Below are positions 233 to 64,000 of a stretch of DNA of 64,000 bases, one piece after another; the first letter of the stretch is position 1, and every line of letters starts with the position of its first letter. The stretch covers positions 12,223,621 through 12,287,620 of the forward strand of contig CAJINV010000002.1 in assembly GCA_905178155.1 (NCBI GenBank). The letters run 5' to 3'. A program made the translations under genes and the position numbers. The notes below the pieces were generated by a model. That model searched no databases. It had not been told where the DNA came from and saw only the letters and a program-made list of their open reading frames with translations. Source of the stretch: Amoebophrya sp. A120. Lineage: Eukaryota; Protista; Dinoflagellata.

Positions 233-3200
233 CTAGCCTTTTCGATGTGATAGACCGCTGTCGTCCTCGTCGCTGTCGTCGTCCGAATCTTCGTCCGAGT
301 CATCTTCGGATCCCGGCTTTTTGGCTTTGCTGGTCTTGCTCGCCGCTTGCGAGTTGTACTTGCTCTGCAACTGCGAAGCAATGGTGGATAGCGCCGACAC
401 AGAGGTTGGGTGGGCACTGTCGCCAGACCCAGACGAGCTGCTTCCCCCGGAAACGCCGCTTTTGCTTGCCCCCGATTTCGATTCGTAGCCGGACTCGTAG
501 TCTTCGTCCTCGTCCTCCTCCTCCTCGCTGTAGTACTCCGACGATTCCTATGCACAGAAAAAAACCCATCCACATCCATTTTTTGCATGACAAACACAGG
601 ATTTTACGTATGTTTTGCATGACAAATTGGATGTGGATGGGTGTTTTTTCCTGGATAATTCCTCCTCGTCTTCGTCCCGATAGACGCGGGACATGGCCAT
701 CAAGTCCTCCTCCTCGTGCTCCTGCGCCAGGGCGACGGTGAGGCCGGGGTTCAGCTTCACCTTCTCCAAGCCCTCCCGGATGGCCTTCTGCATGCCGCCC
801 TGGGGGTCCGCCCCGAACTCCCACAGCTGCTCGGTGTCCACGGCGTCCTTGTCCAGCTTATCGATCTCCGCCCGCCGGCTGGCCTGCAGTAAGGTTTCCA
901 GGTCCTTGATGCGGTGCTTCATAGCTTTCGAGAGCCAGGGCGCCAGTGGCATGGTCTCCAGCGGCTTGGCCAGTTTCTGCATCTCCGCCAACTCCTTCTC
1001 GATCAGCTTGGTCTCGCTCTTGTGCGGCAGGGGGCGCGAGAAGATCTCGCCCAGGACCTCGCGCTTGCCGTGCCAGTGCTCCAGCGGAATGCGGTTGGAT
1101 TTCCCGATCGCAAGCTTCATGTCGCGGTCGAACACATGGTCGGCGTCCGCGACGTAGCGCAGCCGCCCCTGGTTCGAGCTCCGCAAGTACTTCGTGATGG
1201 AATACCCGCGGTCCGGCTGCCGCTCCTGCACGGAGAGCGCGCCGTTCTGGCCCGTGATGATTTCCTCCCGGTCCATGTACTCGACGCGCACCGCGATCAC
1301 CTCCTCCAGCAGGTGAACGAGCATCATCAGCAGCTGCCCCTTTTTCACGAGCAGCGACACCTCCCGCTCGGTGTTGATGGCCACCTGGGTCTGCGGAATC
1401 AGCCCGGCGTACACGCAGCGCTCCAGGAAGAGCAGTGCGTGGCGGATCTCTAGCCGCGTCGCAGCTTCCGCGTTCAAGAAGGCGTGCCGCAGGTCCTGGT
1501 CCTTGTCCTTCAGTCCCTGCAGCCGGAACTTCATGCGGTCGCGAAAGTGCAGCAACTTGGAAAACTCCTGAGCCCGCTGCACGCACGCGGCGCTCCGCTT
1601 CTCGCCAAACACCTCCTCGTGCAGGCCGCGGATCAGCCACCGGTGGTCCCGCTCGATCTGCCGCAGGCGAACCTCCGCGAGGCACATCTGGCGGAGCAAA
1701 ACCGCGCGGTCCTCCAGGAGGTAGATCAGCGCGTTCTGGTGGATCCAGAAGGCGTGCACGGCGTGCGCCAGCGCGACAGACTGCTGGAACAGGGCGGGGG
1801 GGAGGCCCCGGTTCTCTTTCCCCATGAACTGGCTCACCACGGTGGGCAGGTACGGCAGTTGCGACGCGATGGCGCGGAGCACGCCCGTCAAATCGGCCAC
1901 CCCGTGGACCAGCACCTCGTTCTTCCGGGCCAGTTGCGCAAGCAAACCGTCCCGCTGCAGGTTGGCAAAATCGTTGTCCGGGAGCAGCTGCGCGGCGTGG
2001 TTCCGCGGGATCGCTGGGCGGTACATGTTTGGCGGAAGGGGCGCCTCCCTCTGCTGTTCCTGGTACGCGGCAGACGAGGGGTAGTAAAGATAATTCTTTG
2101 ATGTAGTTTTGCTGCTTCTAAAGTTTTGTTCAACGTCGTTCGACTTCGACTTCGACGACCTCTTCGAAGCAGTATTGCTGACATGATCATCCGACGGCGT
2201 GCAGGACGACACGGTCGGGAAGGCGCCGAGGATGGCGGATCTTCTTGTTTTCATCTCTGCATCATCTTGGACATAATCCAGCAGGCCACGGGATTTCGCA
2301 TGCATCAAATCCGCTCTCCTCATTTTTTCCTTTTTGCTTCTTTTTTTTCCGTGCCTCCTGCTTTCATCGAGAGGAGGGAGATGAAGATCAACGTGCAGCT
2401 GGTCGTCCAGAGATGCGACTACGTCGTCCCCCGTCTCGACGTCGTGATAAAAGGCCTTTTCGAAACGTCGCGAACTTTTGGATTTGCGAACCTTCTGACT
2501 TTCTGTCGGGCCTGATGCGTCTTCTGACGCAATTGAGGACGAATCAGAGTTCATGCGGCGATAGTACGACGCTGCGCGGTCATCGAGGGGCAAATTGTTC
2601 AGCATTTCTTCTAGTTTCTCGTCGGAAAGAAGCTGCAGTTCTTTACTACCGCCCGGAGTGTAATTTGTGTTATTTGTCGTGTTTCCCGCCCCGCCAGGCT
2701 GATGTTTGCGCTGGTATGCGTTGATGCTCTCCTTGCTACTCCCGAACTGAAAGTGCTCAAACATTGGAACTGCGTCACTCTGGCTCGGCGGCGACGAGCC
2801 AATCATGCCACCTATCTGCTCGCGCTGCTGTGATGTCGCTTCTGGGTAGAAGGAGAAATTCTGCTGGACCTCTTGTCTTCCAGAGCCGCCAGTTCTCACA
2901 CCTTGAGTTATTGTCTTGCTGGTGCTAATATTTGCGCCAACTCTGGGTACGGACGGGAAAGTGGAATGCGAAAGCAGGAGCTTCGCACTTCCAGCGAGCC
3001 GCGCGGCCGCTTCCGAAAGACTAGACGACCATTCATGGGCATTATGATCTTCATCCTGTTGATGTTTTTGTTCCTTCTGGTTCATCATGGAGCTCGTCCA
3101 CGGAAACCCCTCGTGGACAAAAAATGCACCACCTGCACGAGGATCTAGTGCTACGTCTACGTCGGGTCGTTCCTTCCCCTTCAACTTCATCTCGTCTGTA

Positions 3201-4750
3201 TTATTGCGAAGCTTTTGACGTTGTTGTGCGGATTCGTGACCAAGAAGGTGCTGGTGACGTTCCTGTTGCTGTTTAGCATTGTTCTTCTCGTCCTTGTTGT
3301 GCTTTTCCCCAACAAGCCGCTCCAAAACAGGACTTGCGATCAGCACGCTATTCTCGTCGTCTTCATCATGATGATCTTCTGGCTCTTCGCATTCTGTCCG
3401 CAACTCCGCAATTCCTTCCAGCTTGATGTTCCCCTCTGCAGCTTTCGGTATCGTCGGTCGTCGCAACTGGCTATGATATTGTTCTTCTCCCACGTGCGAT
3501 CCGTTTCTATGAACCTGAAGCGGATTGTCACAGGCAGAAGACGCACGGGAGCTAGTTGTCTTAGATGAGCGCTTGGAGGAAGAGCGCTTCTTTAAGACAA
3601 ATTTTGGAACTGGTTTGGGTTTGCTTGTTGTAGCTTTCTCCTTTTCATCGGTTTCACTTTCATCCACCAGCACAACAACTTTACCAGCTTCATCATCAAG
3701 AACTTCAGACAGGAGCGTAGTCTTCTGCATCGCGATGGAGCTCCTACTTGTTGGTGAAAAGTCTTCGTCCTGCTCCACGGCCACGTGGTCCTTGTTCTTT
3801 CCAACAAGGTGCAGCTGCAAGTGAGGTGGCAGCACTGTCAGCGGCGTGGTCACTGCTGCCTTTCCGGCTCGTGTTTTCATATGAACGGGTCCTCGAGACG
3901 GGGAGGGAGAGAGAAAGACGGTTTGCGGTGTCGTGTTGTTCACGTCTAGGAGCTGCGATGTACCAGAGTGCGGGTGCTCGAACATGCCCCCTGTTCGCGT
4001 TCTGCCCTCAGCAACAAGGTCCGAATCTCCTCTCGAGGAGCTGCCACTGCTCGCGGTCATCTGGGCCAGAGGTGTTCGTGTCACGCTCACGTCGCCTCGC
4101 ACCGGAGTAGTACTTGTATCGTCTTGCGGCGCAACTTGGTTCTGTTCTCTCATCATCTTCACCAAGGCGAAATCATTTCTGTAAATTTTATTCTCGTGCT
4201 GGCCCTTGTAACTTTTCTGCCGGTGGCCAGCACCAACAGAGCGTGCTTCAGACATGGTTCTTGTTTCTCGGCGCAGCTGCTCAAATTTTGCAGCGTTACC
4301 GAAACTACCGATACTCTGTAGTTCGTCCGGAATACCAGATGGGTGCCCGCTTTTCTCCTCGTCGGCCTCTGTTTTTCCCGACCGCTCCCACCAAAACAGC
4401 AGCTGCCGGAGGTCCATCGGGCGTTTCGATTTCACGGAAAATCGGCCCTTGCTCTCCGGATCGACAATGGCAGCATACTTGTCGTGCCAATACCTCCGGT
4501 TGACCGGACGGGGCAGAATTTCCGGAGCAGATGAAAAAGGACCACCCTCTTGCTCAACATAATGATCGCCGGCGCTGTCATTTATTCCGTGCTGATGAAG
4601 TTGCAGGTAGATGTCACTGTTTTCGGGCGGCAAAAAGCTATCGCTCAGTGGGGCACGGGCACGCGCAACAGAGGATGAGGACGAAGACGAGGACGACGCC
4701 CGTGCAGCTCCGTTGCCCGCCAAAAACGTAGTGGCGACGTGATCGATCAT
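233..4750 (-). CDS. Large protein of unknown function (~1467 aa): low-complexity N half, helical/coiled C-terminal domain, acidic tail; exons 4750-658 and 543-233
   Basis: The 1400-aa ORF runs into a TIR element. Removing 544-657 joins ...RDEDEEE to SSEYYSEEEEDEDEDYESG...DDSGLSHRKG* (stop 233-235). A phase-compatible upstream exon (ATG 5149, GT-AG intron 5039-4818) is possible. Confidence 0.8.
549..657. mobile_element. 109-bp TIR introner (family C), TSD ATTCC
   Basis: Inverted ends TATGCACAGAAAAAAACCCATCCACATCC / GGATGTGGATGGGTGTTTTTTCCTGGATA; ATTCC at 544-548 and 658-662; it contains an in-frame stop, and excision restores the ORF. Confidence 0.9.
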
Positions 4751-11287: not shown

Positions 11288-11479
11288 CGTGCGCCCCCGG
11301 AGAGAGTGGACTTAGTTCTACTGATGGCGTCTGTGTTGATAACTAGAACAAGGAAGAGAAACCGATATCTAGAAATCAAAAATTCAAGTTGAGAAGGATG
11401 CCGGACGAGACAGATCTCATGGGACCACTCGTCTGACAATAATCTTCACGATTATAGATCTTAATTTCTGAGACTGAGA

Positions 11480-11502
11480 GGGGGCGGGGGTAGGGGTTGG
11501 GG
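11480..11502 (+). other. Potential G-quadruplex motif
   Basis: GGGGG-C-GGGGG-TA-GGGG-TT-GGGG upstream of the 8605-11287 gene. Confidence 0.4.
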
Positions 11503-13048
11503 TAACAGGGAGATTACTTCTAACAAACTCACACATCTTCATCTCCTGGGTTGTGCTGTTGGTCACAAGTTGTAGGAAGGGGAGTGTTGTTCGAGCACCG
11601 GGCCTGGACGTGAAAACGAAAAGAAAAAACAGACATTGGCGAGAATAGACACAAATATATAGTCCTAAAAACGCTCTAGAGACATTTACAGAAACGATTG
11701 CGCGGCTGCACGGAGGAACGATGAACCGAAGCAGAAGAATGAAAGCACGATGACCGAAATTTCTGGAGCAAGTGCAGTGGCTTGTCAATTGCCAGGTAAT
11801 TTGTGAAGTACTAGAAAAAGAGAACGATAACGAAAACGAAGTGGTGGATTAGAAATATAAAAAAACGAATTGCAACACGACACGAAGACGAGACCACAAG
11901 CGCAATGAAACCGAAACGAGGAGAGCGGCCGGCGTTTTGTACTATTTTAAACTTACACACGACCTCCAATTGCTGCAAGAATCATTGATTCGGCATGGTT
12001 CACGTTCAGTTCCTCACGACAGGAAACGAACACTGCAGCTATAATACTGACATACAGAAACACAAAAGGAGCCCAGCATCGCGCTAAGACTGCTGTTTAC
12101 GAGGAGTACTTATTTTCATTTTCAGGGGTACGTACCGTCCTCGTGGAAGCGCAAACTAACAACACATCATACCATCTCATGCAGAAGCAGACTCATCAAA
12201 GTTCAACGCCATGGCAACATAAGATGAACCTACTTTCGTCTCGAGCTCGACAGGTCGCAGCACAACAAAGACAATGCATCATGAGCCTTTTTTTTTTACG
12301 ATCACTGCTTGAGCTGGATTTCTTAAATACTTGTTGTTGGTGTAGTGCTCGTACTACAAATAGTAAACGGCACTTATTTCTCTGCTGCAGATGAAGCTCG
12401 CACTTCCAGCACTTCCTGCTCGTTGGTTTGGTATGGGGTTTTCGTTTTGTGAAAAAGAATAGGCACGATCACGGCTTAGATCGATTTTGTAAGAGAAGGA
12501 GATGGTGATGGAGGGGGTGGGATTGGCGGGGGAGGGGATTCGTTGGGGAAAAAAGCAAAGTATCTTTTTCTTTCGCCGAAAGATATACTTTGGTTTCGCT
12601 TCGGATACCACGTCCTAGAAGACATAGAGGCAACAATCAACCTCACACGTTTACTAGGTGTTGTACCCGCCTAGGATGTAGGCAAACAAGATTACATAAC
12701 CTTAACCGCTGTAGTACGCTGCACGCAGCATGGGGGGGCTGCGCTTTTTCCAAAACAAAAAAATGTACAGAAGAATGTGAAAGTGTCGCACACATAGTTC
12801 TTTGTGTCAACAAAAACTTTTTGAATGAGATGAATGCTTATGATTGAAATCGAATTTGAATGATAAACGTAAATGTGTATGATGAAAAAGAATGCGCCGC
12901 TTGAGAAAAAAATTGTAAACGTAAAAATTGCTTGCCCAAAAATCGGTGTGATTTTTGGTTCTTGCTCCAGCCAGAGCCAACATCTTCAAAACATATTAAA
13001 AACTTCGTCGACAGCGTGAGCGTCACCTTTTCAACATACTGCTCCGGA

Positions 13049-16000
13049 CTACACGACCTTGCCGTTTTCCCCCGTAGCGTCCTGCGACAGCTCCACGACG
13101 GTTCCCAAATCAGCGGCCTGTAGCTTCGTCCGCGAAACGCTTTCCTCCTTTTCCACCGCGAAGTTGCTTTTTCCGCTGAGGTCCATCATCCCGAAGGCAC
13201 CAAGCAGGAGAACGAAGCTGGCGGCCAGGCCACCGATCATGACGAGCGCTCGCATGTTGCCAACGAGGCTGTACAAGAAGGACGAAGAGTGAAAGACAAA
13301 CGAGAAGTGCGCGAGCATTCCGGCCGGGGAAGAAGTGCTTGTGGTGCCAGTGTTCATCTGGTGTGCGCTGCCCGCCATCAGTTTCTGACTTTCTCCAGCA
13401 CCCGGGTGCTGCGCCGCGCCGTCGTAGTAAGCCAGATCATCTTCCACCACGTTTGTTGTTGTTGTTCCAGAGGCGACGTCCGCCAGCTGGTTGTTGACGA
13501 CGTTCTTCGGTTCTTCAAATAGCTCGATGGGCGTGCACAAGTCGCGGCTGTACTCAAAGCAACTGGCGGCTTGCCCCGCGGTGCGGGGGTTCCCCTTGCT
13601 GAAGAACAGTGTATTGAACAGGCCGGCTGAGTTCGAGCCGTATCGTCCCTGGAGCTGCGTCGTGCGGCCGGACGAGGAGGACGAGGATGTGGGCCTACCT
13701 GCACCCCCTCCGTTCAAGTACGCGCCGTGGTGGCCGTATTTCAGGACGGGCAGGTCCGGGTTTGGCCTGATTTCCGGCAGCGCGTGCAACCGTTCCAGGT
13801 CCTGCGGCTGGAGGAGGTTCAGTTTGTAGTAATCCGAGTTCACAAGTTCCCGGAAATACGCAACCACCTCGTCATCCTCGTTCGCAACCTCCGCGATCTC
13901 TGCGTCGTTCAGGAACAGGTTGCTGTAGTCAAAGCGGCCGCGCAGCCCGTAGGAGTAGAAATCCTCCTGGGCGTACGGGGCAGTGATGGCGTCCCACATG
14001 TTGAGAAACCGCGAAGACTTGGTCATCACCTTCTGCCCGTTGGCCTGGATCACTTCGCTCTCTTGCCTCTCCATACCGGGGTAGGGCTTGATGTGGTCCA
14101 TGCGGTAAAGGGAGAGCTTCCCGCGGAGAAGGACGTTCGCTCGTTCATCCACTTCCGCGACGCAGTTCCCACCTGTCAGTGATTGATGTAAGTAGCATGT
14201 TGGTGCCAGGACCAGGAGACTGTCAGTACAGACAAATTGCGGGGGCTGTCGAGTAGATGCAATTAGGTGGGAGGAAGCAAGAATGGCCTATTGCTATCTT
14301 ATACCTACACCTAATGGTAATGGTTTTGGTTGTATCAAGAGGCGTGCTCCTCCTGCTACTGACCAGAGATCACGAACATGATTGACGATGACAGGTACCC
14401 TGGTAAACTAAGTCTACCAGGGTACCTGTCAGTTGTAGACTGTAGTGCTGTTCTTTTCATATATAAATCGAAATAACGAAGAAGAACCACGAAGAACAAG
14501 AAGTTGAGCATTAGAGAATAGCTACGTTTCTTTTTGTCCTGCGCCGCCTTCTCCTTCTTTGCTTCGGCATCTAGATACTCGAGGTGCTTGACCGTGCCGA
14601 TCATGCCTGCGAACCCGAGCTTGACCTCCGAGGGGAAGATTTCGTTGAAGTTGTATTACAGTGAAAAGTGCCCCCCACTCCTCAAATTGGAAAAATTTGT
14701 GATGCGAAGGTTGCAAATGAAAACTTTTTGTCATGCATGAAACGAGTATGAATCTTTCTGATGCAGAGTCTAGGCGTGCATCGCATCGCTTGCATGACAA
14801 GCGCCGCTCTTGCTGGGGTCTTTTGCAATACAAATTTTCGCTATTCACGAGTGGAAACCTGTGATGCTGAAAGGTGCAAGAGGGCGAATGTTTCATTTGG
14901 AAAGGTTTGCAATACAAATGCTTTCAAGTTCGGGGGTGGGGGCATTTTTCATTCTGATAAGTTGAGGTAAATCTTCTGCATTTGCTCCTTGCGCACGGCG
15001 TCCTCCAAGTTTTCCATGCGCTGCACCTCCCGAGTGAACAAGCCAATTTTGTTCGCTTCCAGCACGTGCTGAAAGCCCTTGAAGAAGACGCCGTCCTCGA
15101 TTCGATGCGGCTCGTTCGGAAATTTGACCCGGTCCATGTTGACCCGGGTGGCGCGCGCCTCGATGGCGGAAATAACACTGTCGACGAAGGCGGCGAGCGC
15201 CAGAGTGGCGGGAAACGTCGAAGCGATGTCTACCACCGAAATCGATCGGTACACATCGAGGATAGTGTGGACCAGGGTCTCGCGATCCAGGTTTTCCGCG
15301 ATGCTGGTGTCGCTGGTGTTGTCGATCCGGATCTGCATGAAAAGGGTGGAGTTGATGTTGAAGTCGGTCCAGTTGAAGGGCAAGCGGTCGAGCAGCTTCG
15401 AGTGTTCCGGCAAATGCAGCCGTTCGTGGGCCCACTCCCACATCTGCCGCCTCTTGTAGTTCTTGCCGCCACGGCGGCTCTTCGGGTCCCGTTGCGCCTC
15501 CGCGTTGGCCAAGTACTGCTTCGAGGCTTCGGGGGTGAGCAGGTACTTGGCCAGCGGGATCGACATGATCTGCGCGGCTTGGCCCAGCATGGTGTGCAGG
15601 TTAAACTCCGCTTTTGCGGCGGTCGACTGGTTTGTCAAAAACAGCAGGTCAATGTCCTCTGACTCCTCGATCTCGATCTGCACCAGCGCCTCCGGGTCAT
15701 TCGGATCCGCTATTTGTTCGCCAGTCGATGTTGACGTTGTTTGCGTTTGTTTATTTGCTGAGGACGACGGCGCGACGGTCGTGGAGGACACTGCGTCTGT
15801 GTCCACCATCCCGCCTTGCTGCTGCTGCTCTGTCCCCGCCACGTGCAGCCCCTCGAGAACGGAGGACTTTTCGACTTCGGACAAGTTTAAGGCGTTCAAC
15901 GCGTTCAGACTGGAGGTGACATTGGTGCTGTTCTCGATCCAGACACGCTGCGTGTGCCGGGAGTGCAGGTGGACCTCGTGCGTGTTCAGTGCCTGCTCGG

Positions 16001-17835
16001 ACTCTTGCAGCTTTTTCACCTCATCAGAAGAAAGCGTGTTAGCGATAGATTTGACCTCCTCCAGCAGCTCCTTGGTGGCCTCGCTGTTCTGGTCTGAATT
16101 TGGACTGCTGGAGGCACCGTCCGAATTCATGTCTGGAGACGGGTCCGAATTGATGTTGTCCTGCTCCGTGGGCGTGCTTGTTCTGCGACCCTTCTTTGAT
16201 GCCGAACGGGCCTCGGCCTTGTGGGTATCGACAAACTTCTCAAACTTGTTGCTCAGCGCGTCGTTGTTGGCCTTCTTGTTCACCCGCTTCACGTCAGTCT
16301 GCAGGGTGGCGCGCTCGGTGTCATTGAACGAAGTTCGTAGAAGCGAGGACTTGGAATCCGCGACGGTCTGTGGGGATTGATGTTGGTGCAGTTTTGGTTG
16401 GGGGATAATATATGGATAAATCCGGTTCCGTTACAGTCACTAAAGCCTCTACGTATGTAAAGTCATTCATCAACGCAGCACGGACAAGCAGATTCTACTG
16501 TTTGCTTTTCTTTTGCTAGAAGAAGCACAACGTCGAATCACGATGAGTATATGACTTTTTCTTTTAGTTTTATCTATGTTTTTTCATCATTTTCATACCT
16601 GCAGATGTCGCTCCAGCTTGGAGTTTAGGGACTGAATCAGGCGTCCGTGATCTTCCGCAACGAGGTTTTCCAAATCGAACGTCGCCAGAGGCGAGCGGAT
16701 GAAGTGCTCAAGAAAGGCCATCATCTGCAGGAGACTCGCCAAGGTCAACTGGTTCAGGTCTACGCCGAAGAGCTCCAACAACAGAACTCCTATGGGATCG
16801 GTGTCGGCGTTCAAGCGCGCCACTTGCGGCCTGGATCCGCGGCCGTTCTTGTTCGTGTGAGAAACGCGGGAACTCCAAACGCCGGTAGTAACGACGGGAA
16901 CCTTGACGGCGGCCTCGTCGCGAATGTCCTTCGCGAACTCCTTCACGATGGCGCGGGCCACGCGCTCGTGCGCGATCATGTCATTCTCGTAAGCATACTG
17001 CAGCTCCGAACTCTTGGCGTCCAGTTGCATCGGTGATCCTACTATGGATTGCAAAAATGTCTGGGTCTGGAAGATTGCTAGGTTTGTCAGGCAGGTTTTC
17101 CATGACCCACGCGCTCTGGCATGCACGGCCTAGCGTGACAGGTTCTGTGAAACCTCTATCATGCCTTTCCTGCATGAGAAACTGCCTCTAAAGTTGTTCA
17201 AAAGCGGAGCTCTTTTGGTAATCATGCAACACAAAACTTTCCACGATCCAGATTTAGCATGACAAGCTACATCCTTCCAGACCCAGACACTTTTGCATTT
17301 CATACCTACCATGGTGCCGTGGATTTCGACCGCCCGCTTCTGCTATCCTGTGCAAAAGTATCGCACTCGTATAAATGCAAGTCTTTCATTACAAATCTTG
17401 CCCCCAAGGCAAATCTGCATTACAAATCTTATGTCTCACGCTGAGGAAATTTGTAATGCATTTATACGAGTACGATACTTTAACTTTTGCAATTCATATC
17501 TGCATCCATTGCGGGATCTGCCCCTGAACTTTCTCGCTCCATTCGCTGATGTTTCCTGCCGACGTGGTGGTTAAGTTCTTGTAATAGTTTAGCGTACCGT
17601 TCGCGAAAAACTGCTCGTAGTCGTGCATCGAGGAAAGGAAATCCCCGTGCTCTACCTTGTCGAACGTAAACAGCTTCGAGAGTTTTTTGTGCACATCCTC
17701 TATGGAGGGTGCAGCCGCCGCGCTGCCCAGTGGTGCTGCCGTCGTGCTGGCGCTGGACAATGCCTGTGGCGTGGTAGCCAAGTAAATCAAAGCAAACAGT
17801 CGTGTCCGTAGCGCGTTCATATTAGGCATTGGCAT
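13049..17835 (-). CDS. Type I membrane/secretory protein (~1154 aa), 6 exons, 3 introners plus 2 canonical introns
   Basis: Exons 17835-17499, 17338-17305, 17037-16599, 16367-14960, 14648-14526 and 14172-13049 sum to 3465 nt and are open. Signal-like LFALIYLATTPQALS and C-terminal TM ALVMIGGLAASFVLLLGAFGMM. GT-AG introns 16598-16368 and 14525-14173. Confidence 0.8.
14654..14959. mobile_element. 306-bp TIR introner (family D), TSD AGTTG
   Basis: TATTACAGTGAAAAGTGCCCCCCAC / GTGGGGGCATTTTTCATTCTGATA; AGTTG at 14649-14653 and 14960-14964; excision gives KIYLN-FNEIFPSEVK. Confidence 0.9.
17043..17304. mobile_element. 262-bp TIR introner (family A), TSD CCTAC
   Basis: TATGGATTGCAAAAATGTCTGGGTCTGGAAG / CTTCCAGACCCAGACACTTTTGCATTTCATA; CCTAC at 17038-17042 and 17305-17309; readable as GT-AG using the TSD. 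Confidence 0.93.
17344..17498. mobile_element. 155-bp TIR introner (family B), TSD TCTGC
   Basis: TATCCTGTGCAAAAGTATCGCACTCGTATAAATGCA / TGCATTTATACGAGTACGATACTTT...TTGCAATTCATA; TCTGC at 17339-17343 and 17499-17503; excision gives PQWMQ-KRAVEIHG. Confidence 0.92.
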
Positions 17836-19036
17836 CACGAAGGTGGTTAATATAACAGTAATTCAAAGGTTAGGAGTTGCTTGCTTTCGAAAAAAAAGAA
17901 CCCTTTACGACCTCACTGAAGATAACCAACACCTGCTAAATGGGAAATCATAATAAACATGGTTAAAAAGGTCAAGCAGGAGACGAGGATTTCCTGTTTG
18001 AGTTTTTGATTTGACATGATGTTCGTAGAAGAAGTCACAACTGCAACTGATGCAAAATCTTGAAAATGTTGACGATGACGATCACCAGGAAGGTTCAAAA
18101 AGAAATTCACGAATCATGGTGCGAGTTGTCAGCTGGATTGCTGTATGTGGGTGGTAAACGACCACGACAACCTGAAAAGGTTGAGTTTGTAAGTACGATG
18201 GGGGCTGGCGGACGAAGACGATCCCACACAATACTGTATACATACTTTTCTGTAATCATGAAAATGAACGAGAGGAATACGCTGCACGAGATCATAATCT
18301 AGGTCGCAGAAACACTTCCTACTTCTTGTTCTTCTGCCTTTTGGTTATTATAATCGGCCATTCATACGATTTCATTTTCAACGATGAAACTAAGAAGGAA
18401 CCCTTAAATAATATCATATAATGAAAGATACCATACGTTGTACTTAATTCCGTTACCTCCGTGAACAAACAATTGGATGTCGTGAACGAATCCAATGAGA
18501 GACGAACAAAAATCCGCCCAACATCAAGACCAAAGTTAGTGGAGGTTCTGCAACATGTTATTGTGCGCGAATAAATGACGCATCGCACTACTAGGGGTAG
18601 AAGGGCTAGCCGTAGCCATCTCTTTTATCAGAGCAAGAATAACAAGGATGGATATCCGGCATTTGAGCAGCTGCCCATCGTGATATTGTTAGAGAAAGCG
18701 ACGCTGTGAAGCCTAGAAGTCAACGGATTCCGCTCGGGCAAGGTCGTTTAAGGTTTCCCGGGAAGCCTTCGGCTTCGCTCGTGCTAAAGTGTGTGTTGCA
18801 ATGCAACCGAAAACGCGGCGCGCGCATGGACTCCGCTGCTATTTGTGTACACAACCGCGCCGCGTCTCTCTGTGTTGGCGTCTCATGTGCTTAAATCGCC
18901 ACAGTCGGTTGCGGATTGCGAGCAACCTGGCGGCCCCGGCAAACCGGCGCACATTTCCCGCGGAATTTGCATCGCGGATTTTCTGCCCCAATTTGGTCCG
19001 CCTCGGAGGGCCTCCCTTCCCCCGATGCTGCGGCCC

Positions 19037-19425
19037 CGATTTCGGGAGAGGATTCCACACAGGATTCCGCAGAGGGTTCCAAAATCCTCTCCGGAATCCT
19101 CTGGCCCAAGTTGCGCCGTCTTTCGCGCCCTTTCCCCGACGGGACTACCTCGATTTCGGGGGAGGATTCCACAGAGGATTCCGGAGAGGATTCCAAAATC
19201 CTCTCCGGAATCCTCTGGCCCGGAATCCTCTGGCCCGGAATCCTCTCCGGAATATCCTCTCCGGAATCCTCTGACCGGATTCGCGCCGTCCTTCGCGGTC
19301 TTTCCCCGGCGGCACATCGTCGATTTCGGGAGGGGATTCCGGAGAGGATTCCTCCGGAGACTCCACAATCCTCTCCGGAATCCCCTGGCCCAATTTGTGT
19401 CGTCTTTCGTGCCCTTTCCCCCGTG
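19037..19425. repeat. Three higher-order repeat units built from AGAGGATTCC / GGAATCCTCT inverted motifs
   Basis: Units start with CGATTTCGGG at 19037, 19151 and 19321; each holds forward then reverse copies of the motif. Confidence 0.85.
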
Positions 19426-20443: not shown

Positions 20444-23400
20444 TCACCAGGAAGAGCCCCACTGGCACTGCCAGCCTCCACCACCGCGGCGTTGCCGCTT
20501 TTGCTTGCTGCCCTCTTCCTCACCGTGCCACGCGGCCCGGGACCATTTTTTGTTTTTGTCCTTGTTGCTCTTCCACCAATTTTGCTCTGTGGACTGTTGA
20601 TTTTGAACCTGTGCACCTCCACCAGCGCAGCTCCCGCCGTTGAACCACGAATATACACCGTCAAAATCTTTCCCGCCCGAAGACGGTCGGCCGTAGACGC
20701 CCGCCCCCGCAGGCAATTTGTAGCTATCGAGAGGTCCAAGATCCTCAAGCTTCTTCTTCAACGCCGGCGGATCGCGGTACCAGCCTAGTTTCCAATCCTC
20801 GGCACTCAGCGCGTCCACAGCCAAATGATGCTGAATCCAAAACAGCGTAAATGGCTCGACGTACGGCTCTAATTCCGGCTTCACCAGCTCATCCTTATGG
20901 TTCAGCACCTTGTCTGCCATGCGTCCCATATTTAGCCTGATGTGAAGTGAAGCGCATTAAAGTTGATGGATCACGTGCTGCTTTTTAATTTATTTGTTGG
21001 TTTATTTTTGCAGCGATGGGTGCACTATCGTGTCAATTCCAATTGCAATTCATTGTGCTGCGTATCAACTTCAACTAACATCATGAAAGAACGTGGCTAC
21101 CCTTCACCCTAACACGACGACAAGAGCAAGACCAAGTAGAGAGACTTTCGAAAAACTGCTGATTCCCCTCCTTTTACCATTGGAGCAGCATCAAAGAGGT
21201 AGCTACTTGCGGCCGTATCAAGATCAACCGCGGCTCGATAAAAGCAACAGAAATACCGCCTGAGCTCGTCCGGTTCCGCGGTCGCCAGCCAGGCAAGAAA
21301 ATTCACGTCTGCAGTGGCTGCGAAGTGTGCGGTGTCGCTATCGCCGCGTGAGTGGATAAAGTTCAAAAAGAGCCGCATGAACCGAGCGATATGCAATCCT
21401 TGCCGGACCTGTTTGGGCATGCTTCTCTTACACCAAAAATTGAGACGGTTGAAGATACTCGGTGAGATTGTCTTCGCCTCGCAGATTTCCGTGATTTTAG
21501 CGGCAATATATCGGTTCTCGTTGAAGTTGTAATTGTAGTGCGTTTCTGGAGTCTCCGGAAAAATCCCCTGCTTGCATTCATGCGGCCTGTAGATAACCTG
21601 TTGTGCATAATTATGTGGTCGCTTGATGCTAAAGCTAATCTGCAAAGCAAAAGCTGCTGTTTCTAAGAAACGCGAAGCACCCTTCCCCGACCGGAACCCA
21701 GTAAAAGAAAGCGATTCACCCCTGCATCTAAAATTAATAATTCGTTGTTGTACGCTAAAAAAAAACGATACATGTCGTGAAGATGTGCTACCTATGCAAG
21801 TAGCGATCTCCTTCAACTTAAGCTTAACGCTAACCATAACCAAGGAAGCAACTATAATGGTTCGGCCATACAACGCTTACGCATACCTGGTAAGACACAC
21901 TGAATTTGCGCCCTTGAAAAACCTTTGGAGGCTCGATACTTTTAAAGTTCTGCTCCTCAAGTGTGCACGGGACCCAGCTGATAGTGCGCGAATTTGTTTC
22001 GATCTTTTTGCCTCTGTTCGCTTCCCCGTAGATTCGATCGCAAAGAGCCACAAGCAAGTTTTCCCCACAGTTCTTGTCTGGCACCGTGACAAGCGAGTCG
22101 AAATCGCTGTCAGCGCAGCTATATTGCCCCCAGCGTGACCCCTGAAGCAACAGCCTCGGCTTTTCCAATGTCTCAAACACTTCACACACAGCAGCACACG
22201 CTGGTGTCTTCGTCTCCGCACCAAGCAAAAGCTGCCCGATTACGTAATCGCTTGCCTCCCTCTGCGCTCTGTGGCGATCATCCGGCTCATTCTGCCACTT
22301 GGCGCGCACCTCGCTGAATTTTTCGTCTTCTAGCTGTGTGTTTTCCTCTCCGGCAGCCTGAAGCTTCTTCTCGTAATGTTTAAAGCACTGCGTTGTAGTT
22401 GGAACGGCCAGCCGCAACTCGTCGAACATCAAGGGAGGCCGGACACGCCGCTCTTCTACGTTTACTTTGGCTCCGCAACTTTGCTCGCCAGCTGCAGTCG
22501 TTCTTGACGATGAAGAGCAGTGGTGTATTGCGAGACTCGCACCTTCATTGCCGATACCGTACGAGCCCCGGCAGGCCGACCCCGCTTCCTTTGCCTCAGC
22601 GTCGTCGTGGTCTATGCGGCCGAACGGATTGTGACAAGTTGCTGTGCGGCTGATTCCTGCTTCGTAGCATGGCGCGCCGTCAGTCTCTTCGCGCAGCTCG
22701 CCATCGCTCATTTTCCTGAACGCAAGTTTCAAGTGGTCCAAGTTCCCAAGATGATCTTACGCATGTAACCGATTTTAAAAATTTCGCGCCCCGGGTTCGC
22801 GCAAATGTGACAAAGCGCGTAGGCAGGTTCTAGCGCTGCTTTCCTCGCGCCTTGACATAGTGCGCCGAAGCGGATGCGTCCGTCGCAATGGTACAAGTGC
22901 GACACCCGGCCACTTTCTGTTGGCCACAGGTGCGCACGCAAATGCACAGGGGCCGGGCCCCCAGCAGCCCCACACAGTGCCACACCCGCGCCAGAAGCTC
23001 AGAAAACTTCTCGCGCAGCCGCAGCCAATCGGAACAACACTGGGCGCTCTCGGTCATGGTGCCCCCGAAGCCCGAAGTCGTGACCCAGCTTCGAACCCGC
23101 GCTCACTCAGAGCGCGGGCACAGATAAATAAGCTTGCAGGATCGGGGGCTCCCGATCTTACGAGCAAAAGCCCCCAACCTCGTCCCGGCAACATAGCGAG
23201 ATCCACGAAAGCGGCCTCCCGATCTCGCTGATCTCGTGCCGATCTCATCTCCGGCCGATCTCGCGGCGATCCCCGGCCGATCTCGCACCCCCTCCCGCCG
23301 ATCTCGCTGCGATATAACTCACGGCCGATATTGATCTTACTGGCCAGCGCCCGCAGGTCGGAAATTCCTTCCCATTTTCGCTGTAGAATGAATTTCCGCC

Positions 23401-25326
23401 CGCGAGATCAACGAGATCGGGCACGAGATCAACGAGATCGCGGGGGAGATCAGGCGGGAGATCATGAATTTCCGCCAGCGAGATCAGCGAGATTGGGCAC
23501 GAAATAAACGAGATCGCGGGGGAGATCAGGCGGAGATCATGCGATATCGATCGCTTTGATATCGACCGTTCTCGCGTCGTCCCAATGCGAGATCGTAGCA
23601 GGGCCCGCGGGGGGGCGCCGGCTTTCCCAGCCGTCGAGGCCGCCGGCGTTCACGACCGATATCGCCAATCCCGGGCTGCTACTTCTACGACGTCGCGCGG
23701 CGGCCGCTTCGAAAATTTTACGCAGCGCCCCTGGTTGCAGTTACAGAGCGCCGCTGCACCGGCGCGGTCAAGCCGAAAGGCTTCAGAGAGAACCGCGGGC
23801 AGGTCTTTGGCCGTGCCATCTCTCGCGAATTTCATGACGCTGAATCGACCAGCCGCTGCGGAGGCATGGCGCAGAACGGCCGAGGGGTTTACGCTATGCC
23901 GACGAATCCCCGGGCAGACAGACCAGGGCAACGATGGGCCTCGCGCGGTGCCCTCCAATGGGCGAAAATCTTGAAATTCCGTTATATCAGTTATATCATC
24001 ATGGGAATTGGACCACATAACAAGTTCTAGAGCCTGCTCATCCACAGATCGGTTTGTATTTTTGAGCGTACTATCTGCTGTCTCCTGCAGCTGTGTTCGC
24101 TTTTCATCTACTGCAGTGTGCTCACCTGCTAGTGCTACATGAGGATGTTGTCCACGCGCGCTCCTCTGCTCCGATAAGGCTTCCTCAGATTCGATTATCG
24201 CGTCTTCGCCTTCTTGTTGCTCTGGAAGGTAGTGCCACGGCAGGCCGTAGGGGGAGTTGTACAGCTCCGCCAGTAACTTGTCTTGCAAGTAATACCGCGC
24301 ATCGTCGAAGAACTCACGTTCGTATTCCTTGTAGCTGATGCAAAGGCCCGCCCTTCGAAAATACCTCTTCATCATGTCCACCGCCGTAGCATAAGCGTGC
24401 TTGTCATCGGAAACCTGCGCTGGGCAAATCACCATACAAATTTCCACCTTCGACGGCTGCAATCCATGATGAAGGCGTAGCACATTGTGGCAAAAGTTGG
24501 ATGCGTAGTCATTTTTTTTCCTCCCCCGCACCAAAATAGCGCTGTCCGCGCTGATCACGACCCGAAACGTGACATCTCGTGCGTCCCTGACGCTTGCCCC
24601 CGCCTCCGCGAGCCGCGGTTTGATTTCCTGCGGAAATTTTTCGTCCTCTAATTGCACCGCCCCGCCACGCTCGTCTTGATGCGCACAAATCTCTTTGTGT
24701 AGTGTGCGCCAGTAGACAGTTTGCGCGGCAAACATGTGCGCCTTGTTATTCACATAGTAGGCACTGACAGAGAGGTCCTCGAAAAATTTCAGACCGCGCT
24801 CCTGCAGATCCTCAAGTACGAACTGATCTTGTTCCGTCTCCTCGATAATACCATCGAGCTGACCCTTTTTCTTCATCCGCTTGTATGTTCGCCGCATCAA
24901 TGCCACGGTAGATTCACCGATGAGCACAGTCGCTTGATGTTGAGCTGCAGCCATGACCGGCGCAGACATTGACAAGGAGCTACAAGCCGACGGTGTCAAT
25001 GTGTGCGAGGAGGAGCTGAACCCAGAATTTTGTTTTGGGCTGGTAGTTGCATCTTCGAGGTGCTGATATTGACGAGCAGCCGCAGCCGCATCGTCCTCGT
25101 CCTGGTGAGTCTGACACGCTTCTGTGATGATGCCACTAGTGCAGGCCACTGAGGCTCCAGCGGGAGCCAAGACATGGTCTACAATGTCAGCAAAGAGAGC
25201 CTCTGCCTCGTCCCGATCATGCACTTCTTGCGCGTTGGCATTGTTTTGGAACGGGTTCGCGGGACCTGCGTCCACGGTTGTAGTCCCAGGGATTAGCCTG
25301 CTCTTCGAGAGCCCCGGGCTTGACAT
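20444..25326 (-). CDS. Multidomain protein with a divergent Pol-beta-superfamily nucleotidyltransferase domain (Cid1/TRF4/TUTase-like); 3' end uncertain
   Basis: Exons 25326-24021, 22722-21887 and 21639-~21178, with a possible last exon ~20935-20444 (phase unresolved). Motif LQGSRWGQYSCADSDFDSLV matches hGS-x-DxD; later LNFWCKRS...GLHIARFMRLFLNFI resembles the TUTase/PAP central helices. Confidence 0.65.
22728..24020. mobile_element. 1293-bp TIR element acting as a putative giant introner, TSD CAAGT
   Basis: ~60-bp imperfect TIR: GTGGTCCAAGTTCCCAAGATGATCTTACGCATGTAACCGATTTTAAAAATTTCGC versus reverse complement GTGGTCCAATTCCCATGATGATATAACTGATATAACGGAATTTCAAGATTTTCGC. CAAGT at 22723-22727 and 24021-24025; excision fuses DEQALEL to AFRKMSDG in frame. 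Confidence 0.82.
23219..23541. repeat. Opposed GATCTC and GAGATC motif arrays, including a 76-bp tandem duplication
   Basis: GATCTC copies at ~23219-23310; GAGATC copies at ~23401-23540; the duplicated unit starts ATGAATTTCCGCC at 23388 and 23464. Confidence 0.85.
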
Positions 25327-38377: not shown

Positions 38378-40753
38378 TCACAACAGCGTTGCCTCGGCCG
38401 AGACCACGGCTTCGGCCTCCGCTTCTGCCTCCTCCTGTTGCGTTAGCAGATTTTGCATGGCATTGGCCCCCTGCTGTGCGGCGGACGCGGACGATGCGTC
38501 TTCCCCGGCGGCGGACGGGCCCGTATCCTGGTCGGCGACACTGCCGAAGAAGTCCGCCAGCGACTGGTCATTCGCGGAGGCGGTAGGCGTTGCGTCCATC
38601 TCCTGGACCGCCGCCGAGGTGGAATTATCCACAGCGAGGTCATGCTTGTCCATTTCCGTTTGCAGGAAGCTGTCGTCCACGGTGACAGGTGCTGTGGATC
38701 AGTTGTGAAGAAATGCAAAGCTGCAACATACCGAAGACACTGTCCTCACTGAGGCTATTTGCGGGTGGTAAAACAAAAACTACAGCAGTGTGACCGTTCC
38801 GGTTGTCTTTGGCTTTGACTACACTTTTACATTCCATTGCCATTGGAATGTAAATGTATGGAAATCAATTGAAACACAACCCCACTGAATCGACGGATTC
38901 TTTTTTGTCCCACAAAAGAAAAAGAATAACGCGATTCCTGACAAAACTAGAATGAAAAGAAAAAGCTCAACAATCGTTACCTGCCGTGTCCGCATCCAGT
39001 GCTTCCGTCGTTCCACCAGCTATGGCGTCCGCACTGTTTGCGACCGTCGTTGTGGTGAAAATGATCGGGTCCGGGTTCTCCACCACGACGGCTCCTGCGC
39101 TGTCGGTTGCAGCGCTTGCTCCCGCCAAGACGGGGGAAACGACTTCCGCGTCAGCCCCCGCGCCCGACACGAAGTCGGCCGCGTATCCTGTGCAAAAGTA
39201 TCGTACTCGTAGTAATCCCATTCATGCATTACAAGCTTCTTTCTCAAGTTAAATCCGCATTACAAATTTTCTTTCTCATGCTGAGGAAATTTGTATTGCA
39301 ATTCATACTAGTACGATACTTTTGCAATGCATACCGCGGCACCCGCAACAACACCGGGGATGGCGGAGGAGCCCGCCACGTCGGACAGCCCGATGGAGTC
39401 CCCCAGGCCGAGGGGAAAAGGAGGATGGTCGTCCTCAGTCATGACCGGACGGTCGAGTAACCGAACGGCCTCCTCCGCGTCGTCCTCAGAAATCCCCGTC
39501 ATCGGGTCGGTCTTGACGAAGTGATCCACCATGTGGCTGCCGTCCGTCTGCTTAAACAAGTCCCAATCGTCCAAAGCGATCCAATTGCCTGAAAAGTTAT
39601 AGGTCGTGTGGGTAGGTACAACTACAAGATCGATGCCCTTCGCCGCAAAACTCAAACTTCACTTGGAAGGGAAATCAATCTCCTGTCTACTTCTGAAAAC
39701 TTTTATTTCGTGGTGTTTAATGTCCACTAGAAGAGGCACGTGCTTTAGTCGTAGCGGACATCATCACTCTCCAATCAAGTACTATAATCAACACATTTTA
39801 GTCCTACCTTTGAACCCCGGATGCTCCTTGACCCAGTTGTAGATCTCTGTTGCGCGACATTCCACGCCCCGGCACAGGCTTGGCGTGGCCCCCACGATGC
39901 GGTCCGCCAAGTGGTTCTTTGTCATGGATAGGCGCGTGAAAAGCATGTCAACCAGTTGCGGCGACTTGCGCCAATGGGACGACAAAACGATCTGCGCGTC
40001 GCTGTCGCCAACAACTTGGTCCAGCCGGGAGATCAGCTTGTCGTTCAGCATCGCGTCCTCCGTTTCGTTATTCAACACTCCATCGACGTCCTGGAAAATC
40101 AGGGGTCGTGTGGGGTCGAGAAGATGCCGGGAAACGTCCCCGCCCGACGTTCTCGTCACGGCATTGCAGTCAATCTTGCGAATCGGGGTGGAGAGCTGGA
40201 GTTGGTGCTCGTCGTCGGGTGAAGCCACGGCCGACGTCGAGGAGGAAGAGGACGTGCTGGCACCACTACCAGTTGCCGGGGGCGTCTCGTGATCTTCAGC
40301 TCGTTCGTCGTCGGCAGCACCACTGCTGGTGTACTCGCGAGCCCCCTCGACGCTGTCCTGCAACTCCAATTTCTCGCATTTCTGCAGCGTTGTGTTGTGT
40401 GCTCGCACCTGCTCCTGGAAGTATGGCGCTTTTTCGATGCTCAAAAAGGACGAAGAAGAGGAAGATGCGCCTCTGGCAGGTCCAGTGATCGCTGCTCCGG
40501 AGTTAATCACAGGTGGCTCCTGGAGTGGTCGTGATGTCGCACCGTCTAAGAAGTTGCTGCGCAGAGATACATTTCTTGTCGGGTTCTTGGAGGTCAGCAG
40601 TGTTGCTGACGTTGCCCCAAAGCTGCTGTGGTCGTCGTGCGCAGTGGAAAGCAGTGATGGCTGAAGCTGATGCGCGGCGGCTGCAGCATCGTAATGACCA
40701 GCGCCGTCGGACCCAGCCGAAAGATGGTGCAACAGCTCGGACAAGATCGGCAT
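38378..40753 (-). CDS. HAD phosphatase of the 'Swiss Army Knife RNA repair' type (HAD_SAK_2-like) flanked by low-complexity regions (~570 aa)
   Basis: Exons 40753-39808, 39588-39334, 39178-38981 and 38691-38378 (1713 nt). Motifs IFQDVDGVLN, IVLSSHWR, GATP...RATEIYNWV, WIALDDWDL, FVKTDPMTGIS. Confidence 0.82.
39184..39333. mobile_element. 150-bp TIR introner (family B), TSD CCGCG
   Basis: TATCCTGTGCAAAAGTATCGTACTCGTA / TACTAGTACGATACTTTTGCAATGCATA; CCGCG at 39179-39183 and 39334-39338; excision gives VVAGAA-ADFVSGAG. Confidence 0.93.
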
Positions 40754-61029: not shown

Positions 61030-63851
61030 TTATCCACCAGGTCCAGGCCCTAAACTCCCTATCGCTCCGGACATCACGGCCCCCCCGCCTGCTGTTGGCA
61101 CTACTCCATTTCCTCCGGCGCCATCCTCAGTTGTAGAATTTGGGCTTCGATTTCTACCGGAGGCACTGGAGAGCACCTTTTTCAGCTGCAGACCGATCTT
61201 CTCCGACACGCGCGTGACTCCGTCGACGGCCCCAGTAAAGCTGCGACTGCTGCCGGAAAACTGCATCTGCTCCTGCTGTTCTTGCGAAGACTGCATTTGC
61301 TGGTGGCGCAAGAAGTCGCTGGTCGAATACAGGTCGCTGGACCCCCGAATGTGGCTCTCCGAAAGCAGGTTCTGCAGCACGATCTGCTCGTGCGGAGGCG
61401 GCGAAGAAGGTCCTCCCGCTGGTGTCGTGCCACGATCTCCTGACGCAGTGGCAGTCCCTGCAGCACTCGACGAGGATGATGCGACGACGAGTCCCGCAGC
61501 ACTAGCTGCACTTCCTACGATATCAAATGTAAAAACGTCTGGGTCTGGAAAAATGCAAGTTTGTCATGCTTGTCTGGCATGACTCTTAAATCTGTCATGC
61601 ACATTACCAAAGAGTCCCACTTTTCTGTCATGCAGAAACGTAGTTTGTCATGCAGAATAGGCAACACCTAGAAGCTCAGAAACTTATCATGCTGAGCCAG
61701 CAATTGTGGCCTCCTCATGATATGCCACACAGCATCACAAATTTCCAGACCCAGACATTTTTACATTTGATATACGAAGGAGCTTGAGGGCCGCAGCGGC
61801 CCGGCGAAGGACCCGGACCTGGGCTGGTGCGCGTCGCTGCCCCCGACAAGCGACGTATCAAATGTAAAAATGTCTGGGTCCGGAAGAATGCAACTTGTGA
61901 TGCGCATTTCACATCACACAAAAATCTGTCATGCATGTACGCCAAAAGGTGCACATTTTCCGGTCACCGAAAGAAGGGCTTTGTCATGCGGATGACGCAT
62001 TAGGAGACCTTCTCAAAACCTGTCATGCTAGGGCGTGCATGGTATACCTTCTGGATCATGCCAAAGCTGCATCACAAACCTCTGCATTTTTCCAGACCCA
62101 GACATTTTTACACTTGATACGACGAGGCCGGCGGCAGTGGTTGCGCAGAAGACGCAGATGCCCCGGAGCCACTACCACTCGCTGCTGCTTGCGCAAATGG
62201 TGCACTGCTCGACGAGGAAGAACTCGAAAGCGTTCCTTGTCCTTGCTGCAGCGCGCTGTTGCTGTTCACGAGCAGGTGAGCAGGTGTTGCAGAGTGCACT
62301 ACGGTTCCTGCAGATGATATCATGCCACCGACAACCCCAGCTCCACCATCGTCAAAGGTAGACCCCGCCACACTGGTGCCTGTTGAGGATCGACCACTTG
62401 GAACCATTCCTCCGCCGAGCGTTGCCGATTGGTGGGAAACAGACGCCGGTATGGCGGGAAAATTCACGTTACTTGCTGACGAGCTCACACCTCCCAATGG
62501 CCCTCCACCGACCGTGGTGTTCACCGTCGTGCGAATGCCCTGAGAGGCGAGCGCTGGCGCAGCAAACGGGTCGACCGAATGCCGCAAAGCCATGCTCTGG
62601 AGAGGACCGCCACTGGTAGTGATTTATTTTTCTTTTTGTGAATATCAATTTTTTTGAAAATTTATCACAGATCACAGATACATTCGTTGCTGGAGTAGTG
62701 AACTCTTGTGGTACCGTGCGGTTGCCAGCGATGCTCGTATCATGGCGTCCTCTGCGTCACGCGTGGATCTTCGCAGTGGCTCCGATTGAACCATAAATGA
62801 AGCGGAGTTATCGAGGACCGTGCTGCCCAAGTTGTCTCCACCCCCATGCTCCATGACCCCGTCGAGCATTGTAGCGGAACCCCCTGCGAGGGGTCCCCCG
62901 CCAACTCCCCCCGGTTGCCCCGCCCCGGGTCCTCGCTGCGGCAAGCCGAGTCCGAGTTGCTGCTGGTGCATGGTATTCAACACCTCGGGTTCGGGTGTGG
63001 GGGCAATCTGGTGAAACTGTGAAATTCGGTACACGATCTGATTGTACGCGTCTGGATATTTTTTCTTGACAATGTTGTTCAACGCGTCCGCGGTCAACTT
63101 CTCGGCAACCGTGTAGGTCTGTGCGCGGACGTACGCCGTCCGCTTCTGCCCCTTCTGGACCAGCGCAGTCTCGCCAAAGTAATCACCTAGGTTTGTTCGT
63201 TCATGACTTGTTTTTCTGCTCACTGGTGGCGGGTTGGACAATCCTTCTGTATCGGTCCATACACACATTTCAAGTTAGGTTTATTGTAGGTTCTGTTTCA
63301 TATATTGTGCGTCGTGCGCAGCTGTGGCGGGAAAAATAGGTGTACGTGTATCTATAAACAGGGAATACTACACCACGCAAGTTCGTGCGATAAACATCGT
63401 ACGGTGGAGACAAGGAGTAACTTCTACTCTAACACCAACTCTTGGAAGGAATATTTTTAGCACAAGACCACGACCAGAAGCACCTTCTCTTTTCTGTGCG
63501 ACGACGAGCTTATTTCGTGCGGTGGGAATGCCATTGGGTCCCGGCATGGAGTTTCGCCGGATGACGACGACGTCACAGAGACCGCGCAGAATGAAGTACA
63601 TTTCGAAGCCCTCCTGCCCGAACCGAATGATGTAGTCCCCCGGGGAAAACACCTCCTCGGCAAAGTTGTCGAGAATTTCAGCGACTCCGGCGGGGTGCAA
63701 GTCGCGAAAAAAGGGCGCTTTTTCAATCAGCGAGGCGAAGAGGCAAATCTTGATTTCCAGCACCAGTGCCTTCGAACTCGTGTTGTAGAGCAGATCGCAG
63801 GCCTGTTTGTCGTGCTGGACCTCTAGAAACTGGTGGTACATATTGATCCGC
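61030..63851 (-). CDS. 3' part of a cyclic-nucleotide-binding-domain ion channel (HCN/CNG/EAG-like C-linker plus CNBD)
   Basis: APFFRDL...EEVFSPGDYIIRFGQEGFEMYFILRGLCDV...GDYFGETALV...KRTAYVRAQTY. Canonical introns 63483-63187 and 62681-62613 plus two introners; continues beyond the window. The transmembrane part is not visible here. Confidence 0.82.
61521..61772. mobile_element. 252-bp TIR introner (family A), TSD TACGA
   Basis: TATCAAATGTAAAAACGTCTGGGTCTGGAAA / TTTCCAGACCCAGACATTTTTACATTTGATA; TACGA at 61516-61520 and 61773-61777; interior closely similar to 30070-30327. Confidence 0.94.
61856..62119. mobile_element. 264-bp TIR introner (family A), TSD CGACG
   Basis: TATCAAATGTAAAAATGTCTGGGTCCGGAA / TTCCAGACCCAGACATTTTTACACTTGATA; CGACG at 61851-61855 and 62120-62124; excision gives PPASS-LVGGSDAH. 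Confidence 0.94.
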
Positions 63852-64000
63852 TATCAAATGTAAAAATGTCTGAGTCTGGAAGATTGCCAGGTTTGTCATG
63901 CACATTTTGCATGACTCCTGATGTCTATGATGCATGCCCTAGCGTCACAGATTTTCTGAAGGCTTCCTAATGCCTATTCCGCATGACAAATGCTCTTTCC
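63852..64000. mobile_element. Family A TIR introner, truncated by the window end; predicted TSD TCCGC
   Basis: Begins TATCAAATGTAAAAATGTCTGAGTCTGGAAG directly against the channel exon; interior homologous to 17043-17304. Confidence 0.85.

Follow-up and report, generated by a model that had tools for sequence, protein, structure and literature searches.

We analysed a window of 64,000 nucleotides (nt) from the dinoflagellate Amoebophrya sp. A120 (assembly GCA_905178155.1, contig CAJINV010000002.1, positions 12,223,621 to 12,287,620 of the forward strand), in which genes are interrupted by insertions bounded by terminal inverted repeats (TIRs) and a target-site duplication (TSD). These insertions are non-autonomous TIR transposons, introners of the A120 type, which are kept in the DNA and are absent, together with one copy of the TSD, from transcript assemblies. 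They belong to the system already published for A120, as far as the text and supplement legends of that paper describe it (Farhat et al. 2021, PMC7789003). Our analysis adds that the TSD has a fixed length of 5 bp with near-random bases, and that the elements are independent of orientation relative to their hosts. Removal is likely to take place at the RNA level and to be guided by the TIRs. We predict that a modified spliceosome directed by the TIR ends does the cutting, and give this an even chance of being right.

Insertions in the window and their absence from transcripts

An earlier note on this DNA had described nine TIR elements with 5-bp TSDs in six genes, and all nine are present, each with an exact TSD. 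Taking out an element with one TSD removes 114, 311, 267, 160, 1298, 263, 155, 257 and 269 nt, respectively, and seven of these nine lengths are not multiples of 3. Eight of the elements begin with TAT, 7 variable nt and AAA and end with the complement (TAT...ATA), which bears out the proposed likeness to Amoebophrya introners. The exception is the element at 22728, which has different, imperfect TIRs and sense ends reading TTA...GAA. A scan of the window blind to the coordinates recovered six of the nine, along with two weak chance pairs. The six host genes all lie on the minus strand. The elements and the hosts that bear on them are as follows.

549..657, minus strand: TIR element, 109 nt (TSD 544-548 / 658-662), near the 3' end of an open reading frame (ORF) of ~1,500 codons
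14654..14959, minus strand: TIR element, 306 nt (TSD 14649-14653 / 14960-14964)
17043..17304, minus strand: TIR element, 262 nt, of a ~263-nt family (TSD 17038-17042 / 17305-17309)
17310..17338, minus strand: exon core between two elements, 29 nt (34 nt with one TSD)
17344..17498, minus strand: TIR element, 155 nt, of a ~150-nt family (TSD 17339-17343 / 17499-17503; hairpin z -6.1)
22728..24020, minus strand: GC-rich element of another family, 1,293 nt (TSD 22723-22727 / 24021-24025), whose ends pair in the predicted fold
30070..30327, minus strand: TIR element, 258 nt, of a ~252-nt family (TSD 30065-30069 / 30328-30332), inside a conserved motif of a gene related to ATP-grasp
39184..39333, minus strand: TIR element, 150 nt (TSD 39179-39183 / 39334-39338), in the tail of a HAD_SAK_2 gene; reading-frame evidence
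61521..61772, minus strand: TIR element, 252 nt (TSD 61516-61520 / 61773-61777), in a low-complexity ORF downstream of cNMP-binding exons; reading-frame evidence
61856..62119, minus strand: TIR element, 264 nt (TSD 61851-61855 / 62120-62124), of the family of 17043 and 63852 and in the opposite orientation; reading-frame evidence
63852..64000, minus strand: tenth element, incomplete because the window ends within it, immediately upstream of a cNMP-binding exon
12109..17995, minus strand: host transcript with three elements and two GT-AG introns (14173-14525, 16368-16598)
20447..25326, minus strand: host gene (991 aa) with the 1.3-kb element and two GT-AG introns, without a Pfam match
28009..30841, minus strand: host gene related to ATP-grasp, containing one element and three GT-AG introns

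When each element is removed with one TSD, the other elements being out as well, an open minus-strand frame results at all nine sites, as had been claimed, and it is the longest at most of them; retention of the element truncates this frame. At 549, removal of the element without a TSD also leaves an open frame, a different one, and the region of 61521 and 61856 is of low complexity. The exons adjoining 30070 and 22728 are 100% identical to two annotated Amoebophrya sp. A120 proteins, P0001 and P0072, which contain the one-TSD translation at 30070 and at 22728, respectively. These annotations are transcript-guided and hence not fully independent of RNA-seq. In the case of P0001, 13 homologues align gap-free across the site. 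The domain of the HAD gene ends upstream of 39184, and its intact motif is thus no test of that element.

Four sequencing runs could be compared over 200-18800, which holds four of the nine elements (22728, 30070, 39184, 61521 and 61856 lie outside it). Two of these runs, X1 and X4, are guessed to be RNA and show uneven depth and a lack of GT-AG introns, and X5 is DNA-like. The stretches that X1 and X4 skip were deduced from the lengths of the pieces listed, the letters themselves not being displayed. Their contigs cover 12109-17995 in pieces. In both runs, 34 letters lie between 17037 and 17499, exactly the length of the 29-nt exon core together with one TSD; each of the elements 17043 and 17344 was therefore lost with one TSD. 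Likewise, both have 124 letters between 14170 and 14959, matching exon 14524-14647, and hence 14654 was lost in the same way. For 549 the support is partial: in X4, a contig parts from the genome at precisely 658, in the TSD, and its left partner is not among the pieces listed. Together with P0001 and P0072, these contigs agree with the claim of removal with exactly one TSD. The contigs without elements are also without the GT-AG introns, and both kinds of intron occur in the same transcript (12109-17995), as the earlier note had held.

Could the elements instead be lost from the DNA? In ciliates, internal eliminated sequences (IES) are transposon-like inserts lost precisely from coding DNA together with one flanking repeat. 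IES-like excision, which would cut the elements out of a transcribed DNA copy in one life stage, was one branch of the earlier proposal. Transposase-type excision can remove an element plus one TSD with precision, the DNA-like run is of unspecified life stage, and contigs drop rare variants. However, X5 has a flat depth of ~42-56 in exons as well as in ordinary introns. Its contigs (200-582, 629-14677, 14933-17068 and 17469-18754) pass from flank into element at four of four elements without a break at the TSD and with the depth of the flanks. Among the pieces listed of this one run, this speaks against an empty allele being common in that DNA. Ciliate IES differ in precisely this respect, being removed at the DNA level, and the contigs that lack the elements here lack the GT-AG introns too. 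We therefore regard DNA-level excision as very improbable and the corresponding claim as unsupported.

The observed junctions could also be artefacts, arising from template switching of reverse transcriptase between TSD copies across the hairpin or from assembly errors, in which case the genes would be disrupted. Short direct repeats at a strong hairpin do favour template switching, and the evidence consists of contigs derived from cDNA. Yet the form without elements is the main contig in two samples (X1 and X4), frameshifting copies occur in RPB1 and other conserved genes, the frames of the flanks need 5 nt to be kept (see below), and tens of thousands of such introns have been reported in the parts of PMC7789003 cited here. 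We consider an artefact a slim prospect.

Contig depth reaches 16,000-309,000 in bins within elements and ~45 in their flanks, a figure that is not a copy number. The transcript-like runs contain much element-like sequence at 16967-17587, with contig depths as high as ~3,000, which could mean pre-mRNA, DNA carry-over or stable excised elements. In X9, raw RNA reads with the same species label, five reads matched, all of them in elements and only in 16967-17587.

Related copies, target sites and orientation

The TIR pattern retrieved at least 150 loci from metagenome contigs, all from one assembly, and these are the source of all the figures below that go beyond the window. TIR pairs were picked without use of TSDs, giving 206 pairs (199 from the loci and 7 from the window). 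An exact 5-bp TSD flanks 164 of the 206, against a mean of 1.0 exact 5-mer match in shuffled flank pairs; a 6-bp repeat was found in none and an 8-bp repeat in one (L063:1822-2101). In a further 23 copies the two TSDs differ at one base. The related copies fall into nine families, and identities between elements of the window and of this assembly reach 96%, matching the spread within the assembly. For two of the loci, exon searches returned no identical full-length annotated protein.

The reading frames of the flanks speak for the retention of one TSD. Among 172 copies with usable flanks, 48 exact-TSD copies have both flanks coding, and 37 are strand-concordant. Five retained nt are needed in 34 of these 37 (31 of 33 without the window copies), the exceptions being L083, L129 and 61856 of the window. 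The conserved genes interrupted by copies include RPB1, 3-hydroxyacyl-CoA dehydrogenase and acyl-CoA dehydrogenase. Two of them (L071:471-733 and 1494-2465) lie in motifs of RPB1, the largest subunit of RNA polymerase II, which we take to be conserved at these sites and which are correct only with one TSD kept; Pfam positions continue across the first. The second carries ~700 nt of additional internal sequence, and at the end of L071 an ordinary intron contains another element, whose TSD has decayed. In confidently exonic copies found without requiring TAT, the terminal TAT is intact at 54 of 54 5' ends and 53 of 54 3' ends. With their TIRs, their fixed-length TSD and the lack of stop-free stretches longer than 118 aa, as seen in four long copies from the related loci, the elements have the features of miniature inverted-repeat transposable elements (MITEs).

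When all equivalent junctions in the window are enumerated with the minus strand as sense, only 17043 can be read as GT-AG, in agreement with the earlier note; 549 could be GA-AG, and 17344 and 30070 could be AT-AG. The GT/GC...AG ends of canonical U2 introns are thus available in one of nine window elements. Among the 163 exact copies examined, 68 (3 from the window) have a strict call of the host strand. Their TSD bases are near random and follow the composition of the flanks. Reading them in any register gives GT-AG in 4, GA-AG in 5, AT-AC in 3 and none of these in 56. There is some excess of AG at TSD positions 3-4 (11 of 68, 5.4 expected; p 0.019, uncorrected, one of four tests).

Strand-specific signals, which canonical U2 introns also have, are equally wanting, both orientations being equally common. 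With orientation set by internal sequence only, the four largest families have ratios of 18:18, 11:9, 3:3 and 2:2 relative to the host. The strictest set gives 10:7 and 5:5, and copies of the largest family beside exons with Pfam matches give 6 versus 4. In the window, 17043 (removed in the RNA contigs) has the same orientation as 63852, and 61856 has the opposite one, with 61856 and 63852 sharing the cNMP-binding gene. There is no difference in composition between the 5' and 3' ends of the elements. On both strands the TIRs are predicted to form stems (152/152 and 151/152), which follows from how the copies were selected. As a control, strand calls on 64 windows of Pfam exons were right in 53, wrong in none and absent in 11; this control is partly circular, because the exons were first picked by the same codon model. 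Independent controls are the Pfam-confirmed hosts and 84 non-coding windows, on none of which the strand rule fired. We found no account of the orientation of Amoebophrya elements in the text and supplement legends of PMC7789003 or in passages of PMC12130899, PMC9860276, PMC11282704 and PMC11453091; supplementary figures S19-S25 of PMC7789003 and the datasets of two PNAS papers may bear on it.

Insertion phases are uneven (38/16/14, p 0.0004). We rejected this bias as proof of spliceosomal selection, since the central target base is AT-rich (0.54, against ~0.41) and could yield the same bias.

Possible removal by a modified spliceosome or by a separate pathway

The occurrence of both orientations and the absence of preferred flanking bases suggest that paired ends, not GT-AG signals, direct removal. 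The signal must be strand-symmetric and cannot reside in the TSD bases, which leaves the TIRs, as stem, as sequence or as both. This orientation independence favours the guidance by structure that had been proposed. Since both ends read TAT inward, an element would present an identical signal in either orientation. In our model, a TIR stem of ~30 nt would unite the two ends of the element in the pre-mRNA; the paired ends would mark the element, and a modified major spliceosome would probably make the cuts. In the likeliest register, the first cut would fall after TSD base 4, one base outside the 5' TIR, at a donor N-TAT(C/G), and the exons would be joined four bases beyond the 3' TIR, a point set by distance rather than by AG. 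Such a donor resembles the GTA.../GTATG donors of the host with G at +1 relaxed. An alternative register, with the cut after base 1, would have the acceptor TA-N.

Ordinary introns provide the standard for this comparison: their donors start with GTA in nine of nine and with GTATG in three of nine, and their acceptor tails are A/C-rich without a pyrimidine tract. Half-familiar donor ends, the AG excess and a published T at +2 are our reasons for preferring a modified spliceosome. The last of these comes from Table S4 of PMC7789003, in which the nine commonest non-canonical motifs of A120 all have T at +2, a result dependent on the aligner. The cited parts of that paper also report a near-complete spliceosome, including U1 proteins, in Amoebophrya, and passages of PMC11282704 give a tunicate precedent for the spliceosomal removal of non-canonical introns.

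Several points weigh against this reading. Neither G at TSD position 5 (18 of 68, 20 expected) nor G/AG at the alternative register (22, 20 expected) shows enrichment. The 23 copies with one mismatch in the TSD did not fix the register, many of the differences being silent. Among them, L037 has no homologue among longer proteins, and the homologues of L141 are in frame across a junction whose residue is not conserved. L027 would place the cut after TSD base 1 if its glycine is conserved, as we presume; the structure alignment did not reach this glycine. The skipped letters are inferred from lengths among the pieces listed, X1 and X4 are only guessed to be RNA, and 39184, 61521 and 61856 have their reading frames as sole support. 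A spliceosome would hardly be expected to ligate exons with any base at +1, -2 and -1. Finally, U1 small nuclear RNA was undetected in these genomes according to the cited parts of PMC7789003. We found no paper on lariats of Amoebophrya A120 introns.

The serious alternative is a separate, non-spliceosomal RNA pathway, in which a putative structure-specific endonuclease would cut both TSD copies next to the TIR stem, and the exons would then be joined by a ligase, as proposed for euglenids. Orientation indifference, symmetric ends and near-random TSD bases would all be expected of it; it would accommodate element lengths from 109 to 1,293 nt, the stems predicted in 152 of 152 copies (a pairing that follows from selection) and the unrelated 1.3-kb family, which obeys the one-TSD rule with other ends. 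Circular, non-lariat products are reported for euglenid introns in passages of PMC11282704. Yet the start of the TIR resembles the host donor, and some copies are valid GT-AG introns. The intact terminal TAT may reflect the reading of sequence, or only recent transposition. We judge this pathway a real but lesser possibility, and find the modified spliceosome somewhat more likely. In its full form, the alternative holds that Amoebophrya has a nuclear route of mRNA splicing that can do without splice-site bases or a strand signal, with structure-reading enzymes outside the spliceosome excising any TIR-bounded insert that carries a 5-bp duplication; perhaps one chance in three is a reasonable estimate for it.

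Our results narrow the signal by which tens of thousands of introns without a splice-site consensus would be precisely removed: it must be strand-symmetric, lie within the ~30-nt ends and work for any 5-bp target. Either a spliceosome would ignore positions +1, -2 and -1, or a second nuclear splicing pathway would exist. A second pathway would allow transposons to insert in exons at little cost, and insertions of DNA transposons would then leave no scar in the mRNA, whatever their orientation or site.

Known systems and other features of the window

The earlier note overstated the novelty of these elements, since the element type, the TAT-N7-AAA motif and validation by RNA-seq had been published. 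The cited parts of PMC7789003 describe A120 introners with inverted repeats of TAT, 7 variable nt and at least 3 As, direct repeats of 3-5 nt and RNA-seq support, and 65% of A120 introns as non-canonical. The elements of the window share with them the inverted repeats, the direct repeats at the junctions, the hairpin, a length of ~250 nt, RNA-supported non-GT-AG removal and mixed genes. They have TAT ends in 8 of 9 cases, a direct repeat (5 bp) in 9 of 9 and, among the TIR pairs, in 164 of 206, and repeated families; non-canonical removal from transcripts is seen for three elements by exact length, for one partly and for two by annotated proteins. The published repeats are of 3-5 nt at varying positions, whereas here a 5-bp TSD lies directly outside the TIR, and the family of 22728 is without the TAT motif. 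The elements are likely to be mobilised by a transposase of the integrase type whose gene lies elsewhere. Copia-like ORFs would fit a 5-bp TSD. As a lead only, passages of PMC12130899 describe an A120 TIR family with such ORFs.

Introners of Polarella glacialis, Aureococcus and Micromonas likewise derive from DNA transposons with TIRs and TSDs, include classes found in either orientation and show a phase bias (passages of 10.1101/2020.10.14.339549 and PMC9860276). Unlike those described here, they recruit their donors (GT, GC or GA) and AG acceptors from either the element or its TSD, whereas 56 of our 68 copies have no GT-AG, GA-AG, GC-AG or AT-AC reading. Their classes 6, 8 and 10 are biased to one orientation; we saw no such bias. 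Nonconventional introns of euglenids resemble the present elements in end pairing, TSD-like repeats, absence of GT-AG and coexistence with ordinary introns (passages of PMC11282704 and PMC12501133). They differ in their CAG/CTG pairing at fixed spacing (the ends here are TAT/ATA), a purine at the exon start, their lineage and the excised circles reported there. The MITE-derived introns of Fritillaria borealis have TIRs and TSDs and escape GT-AG (passages of PMC11282704 and PMC13326754), but they have a fixed AG-AN and their removal is ascribed to the U2 spliceosome; the elements described here have no dinucleotide pair that is constant at both ends.

All ten window elements lie in apparent coding sequence, though much of the window is non-coding, and the exons separating adjacent elements, in the related loci and the window, are often short (many of 40-100 nt, with a minimum of 13 nt). 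The element at 22728-24020 contains internal 76-nt repeats, starts with TTA in the sense direction and represents a distinct family under the same one-TSD rule; it has no match among the 150 related loci listed. The element at 61856 takes part in an inverted-repeat pair within the window. The long ORF that hosts 549 has no Pfam match, and the Pfam scores of the cNMP-binding gene at 61856 and 63852 are below the curated cut-off. Searches for Rfam families in the window and for the TIR pattern in viral contigs returned no match.

A GC-rich intergenic repeat block at 18710-19950 consists of 19-nt tandem units and inverted or direct units of ~114-170 nt. It shows no clear TIR/TSD pair; at its left edge the contigs are deeper, which suggests an element that is repeated. 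The protein of 28009-30841 has eukaryote-like relatives (55-85% identity) and, more distantly, bacterial ATP-grasp proteins (43-50%), making gene transfer possible. Several of the ordinary introns, which include 6616-6831, 14173-14525, 16368-16598 and 28559-28784 among those examined, carry ATCAA or ATCAC 11-21 nt before their end, a possible atypical branch motif.

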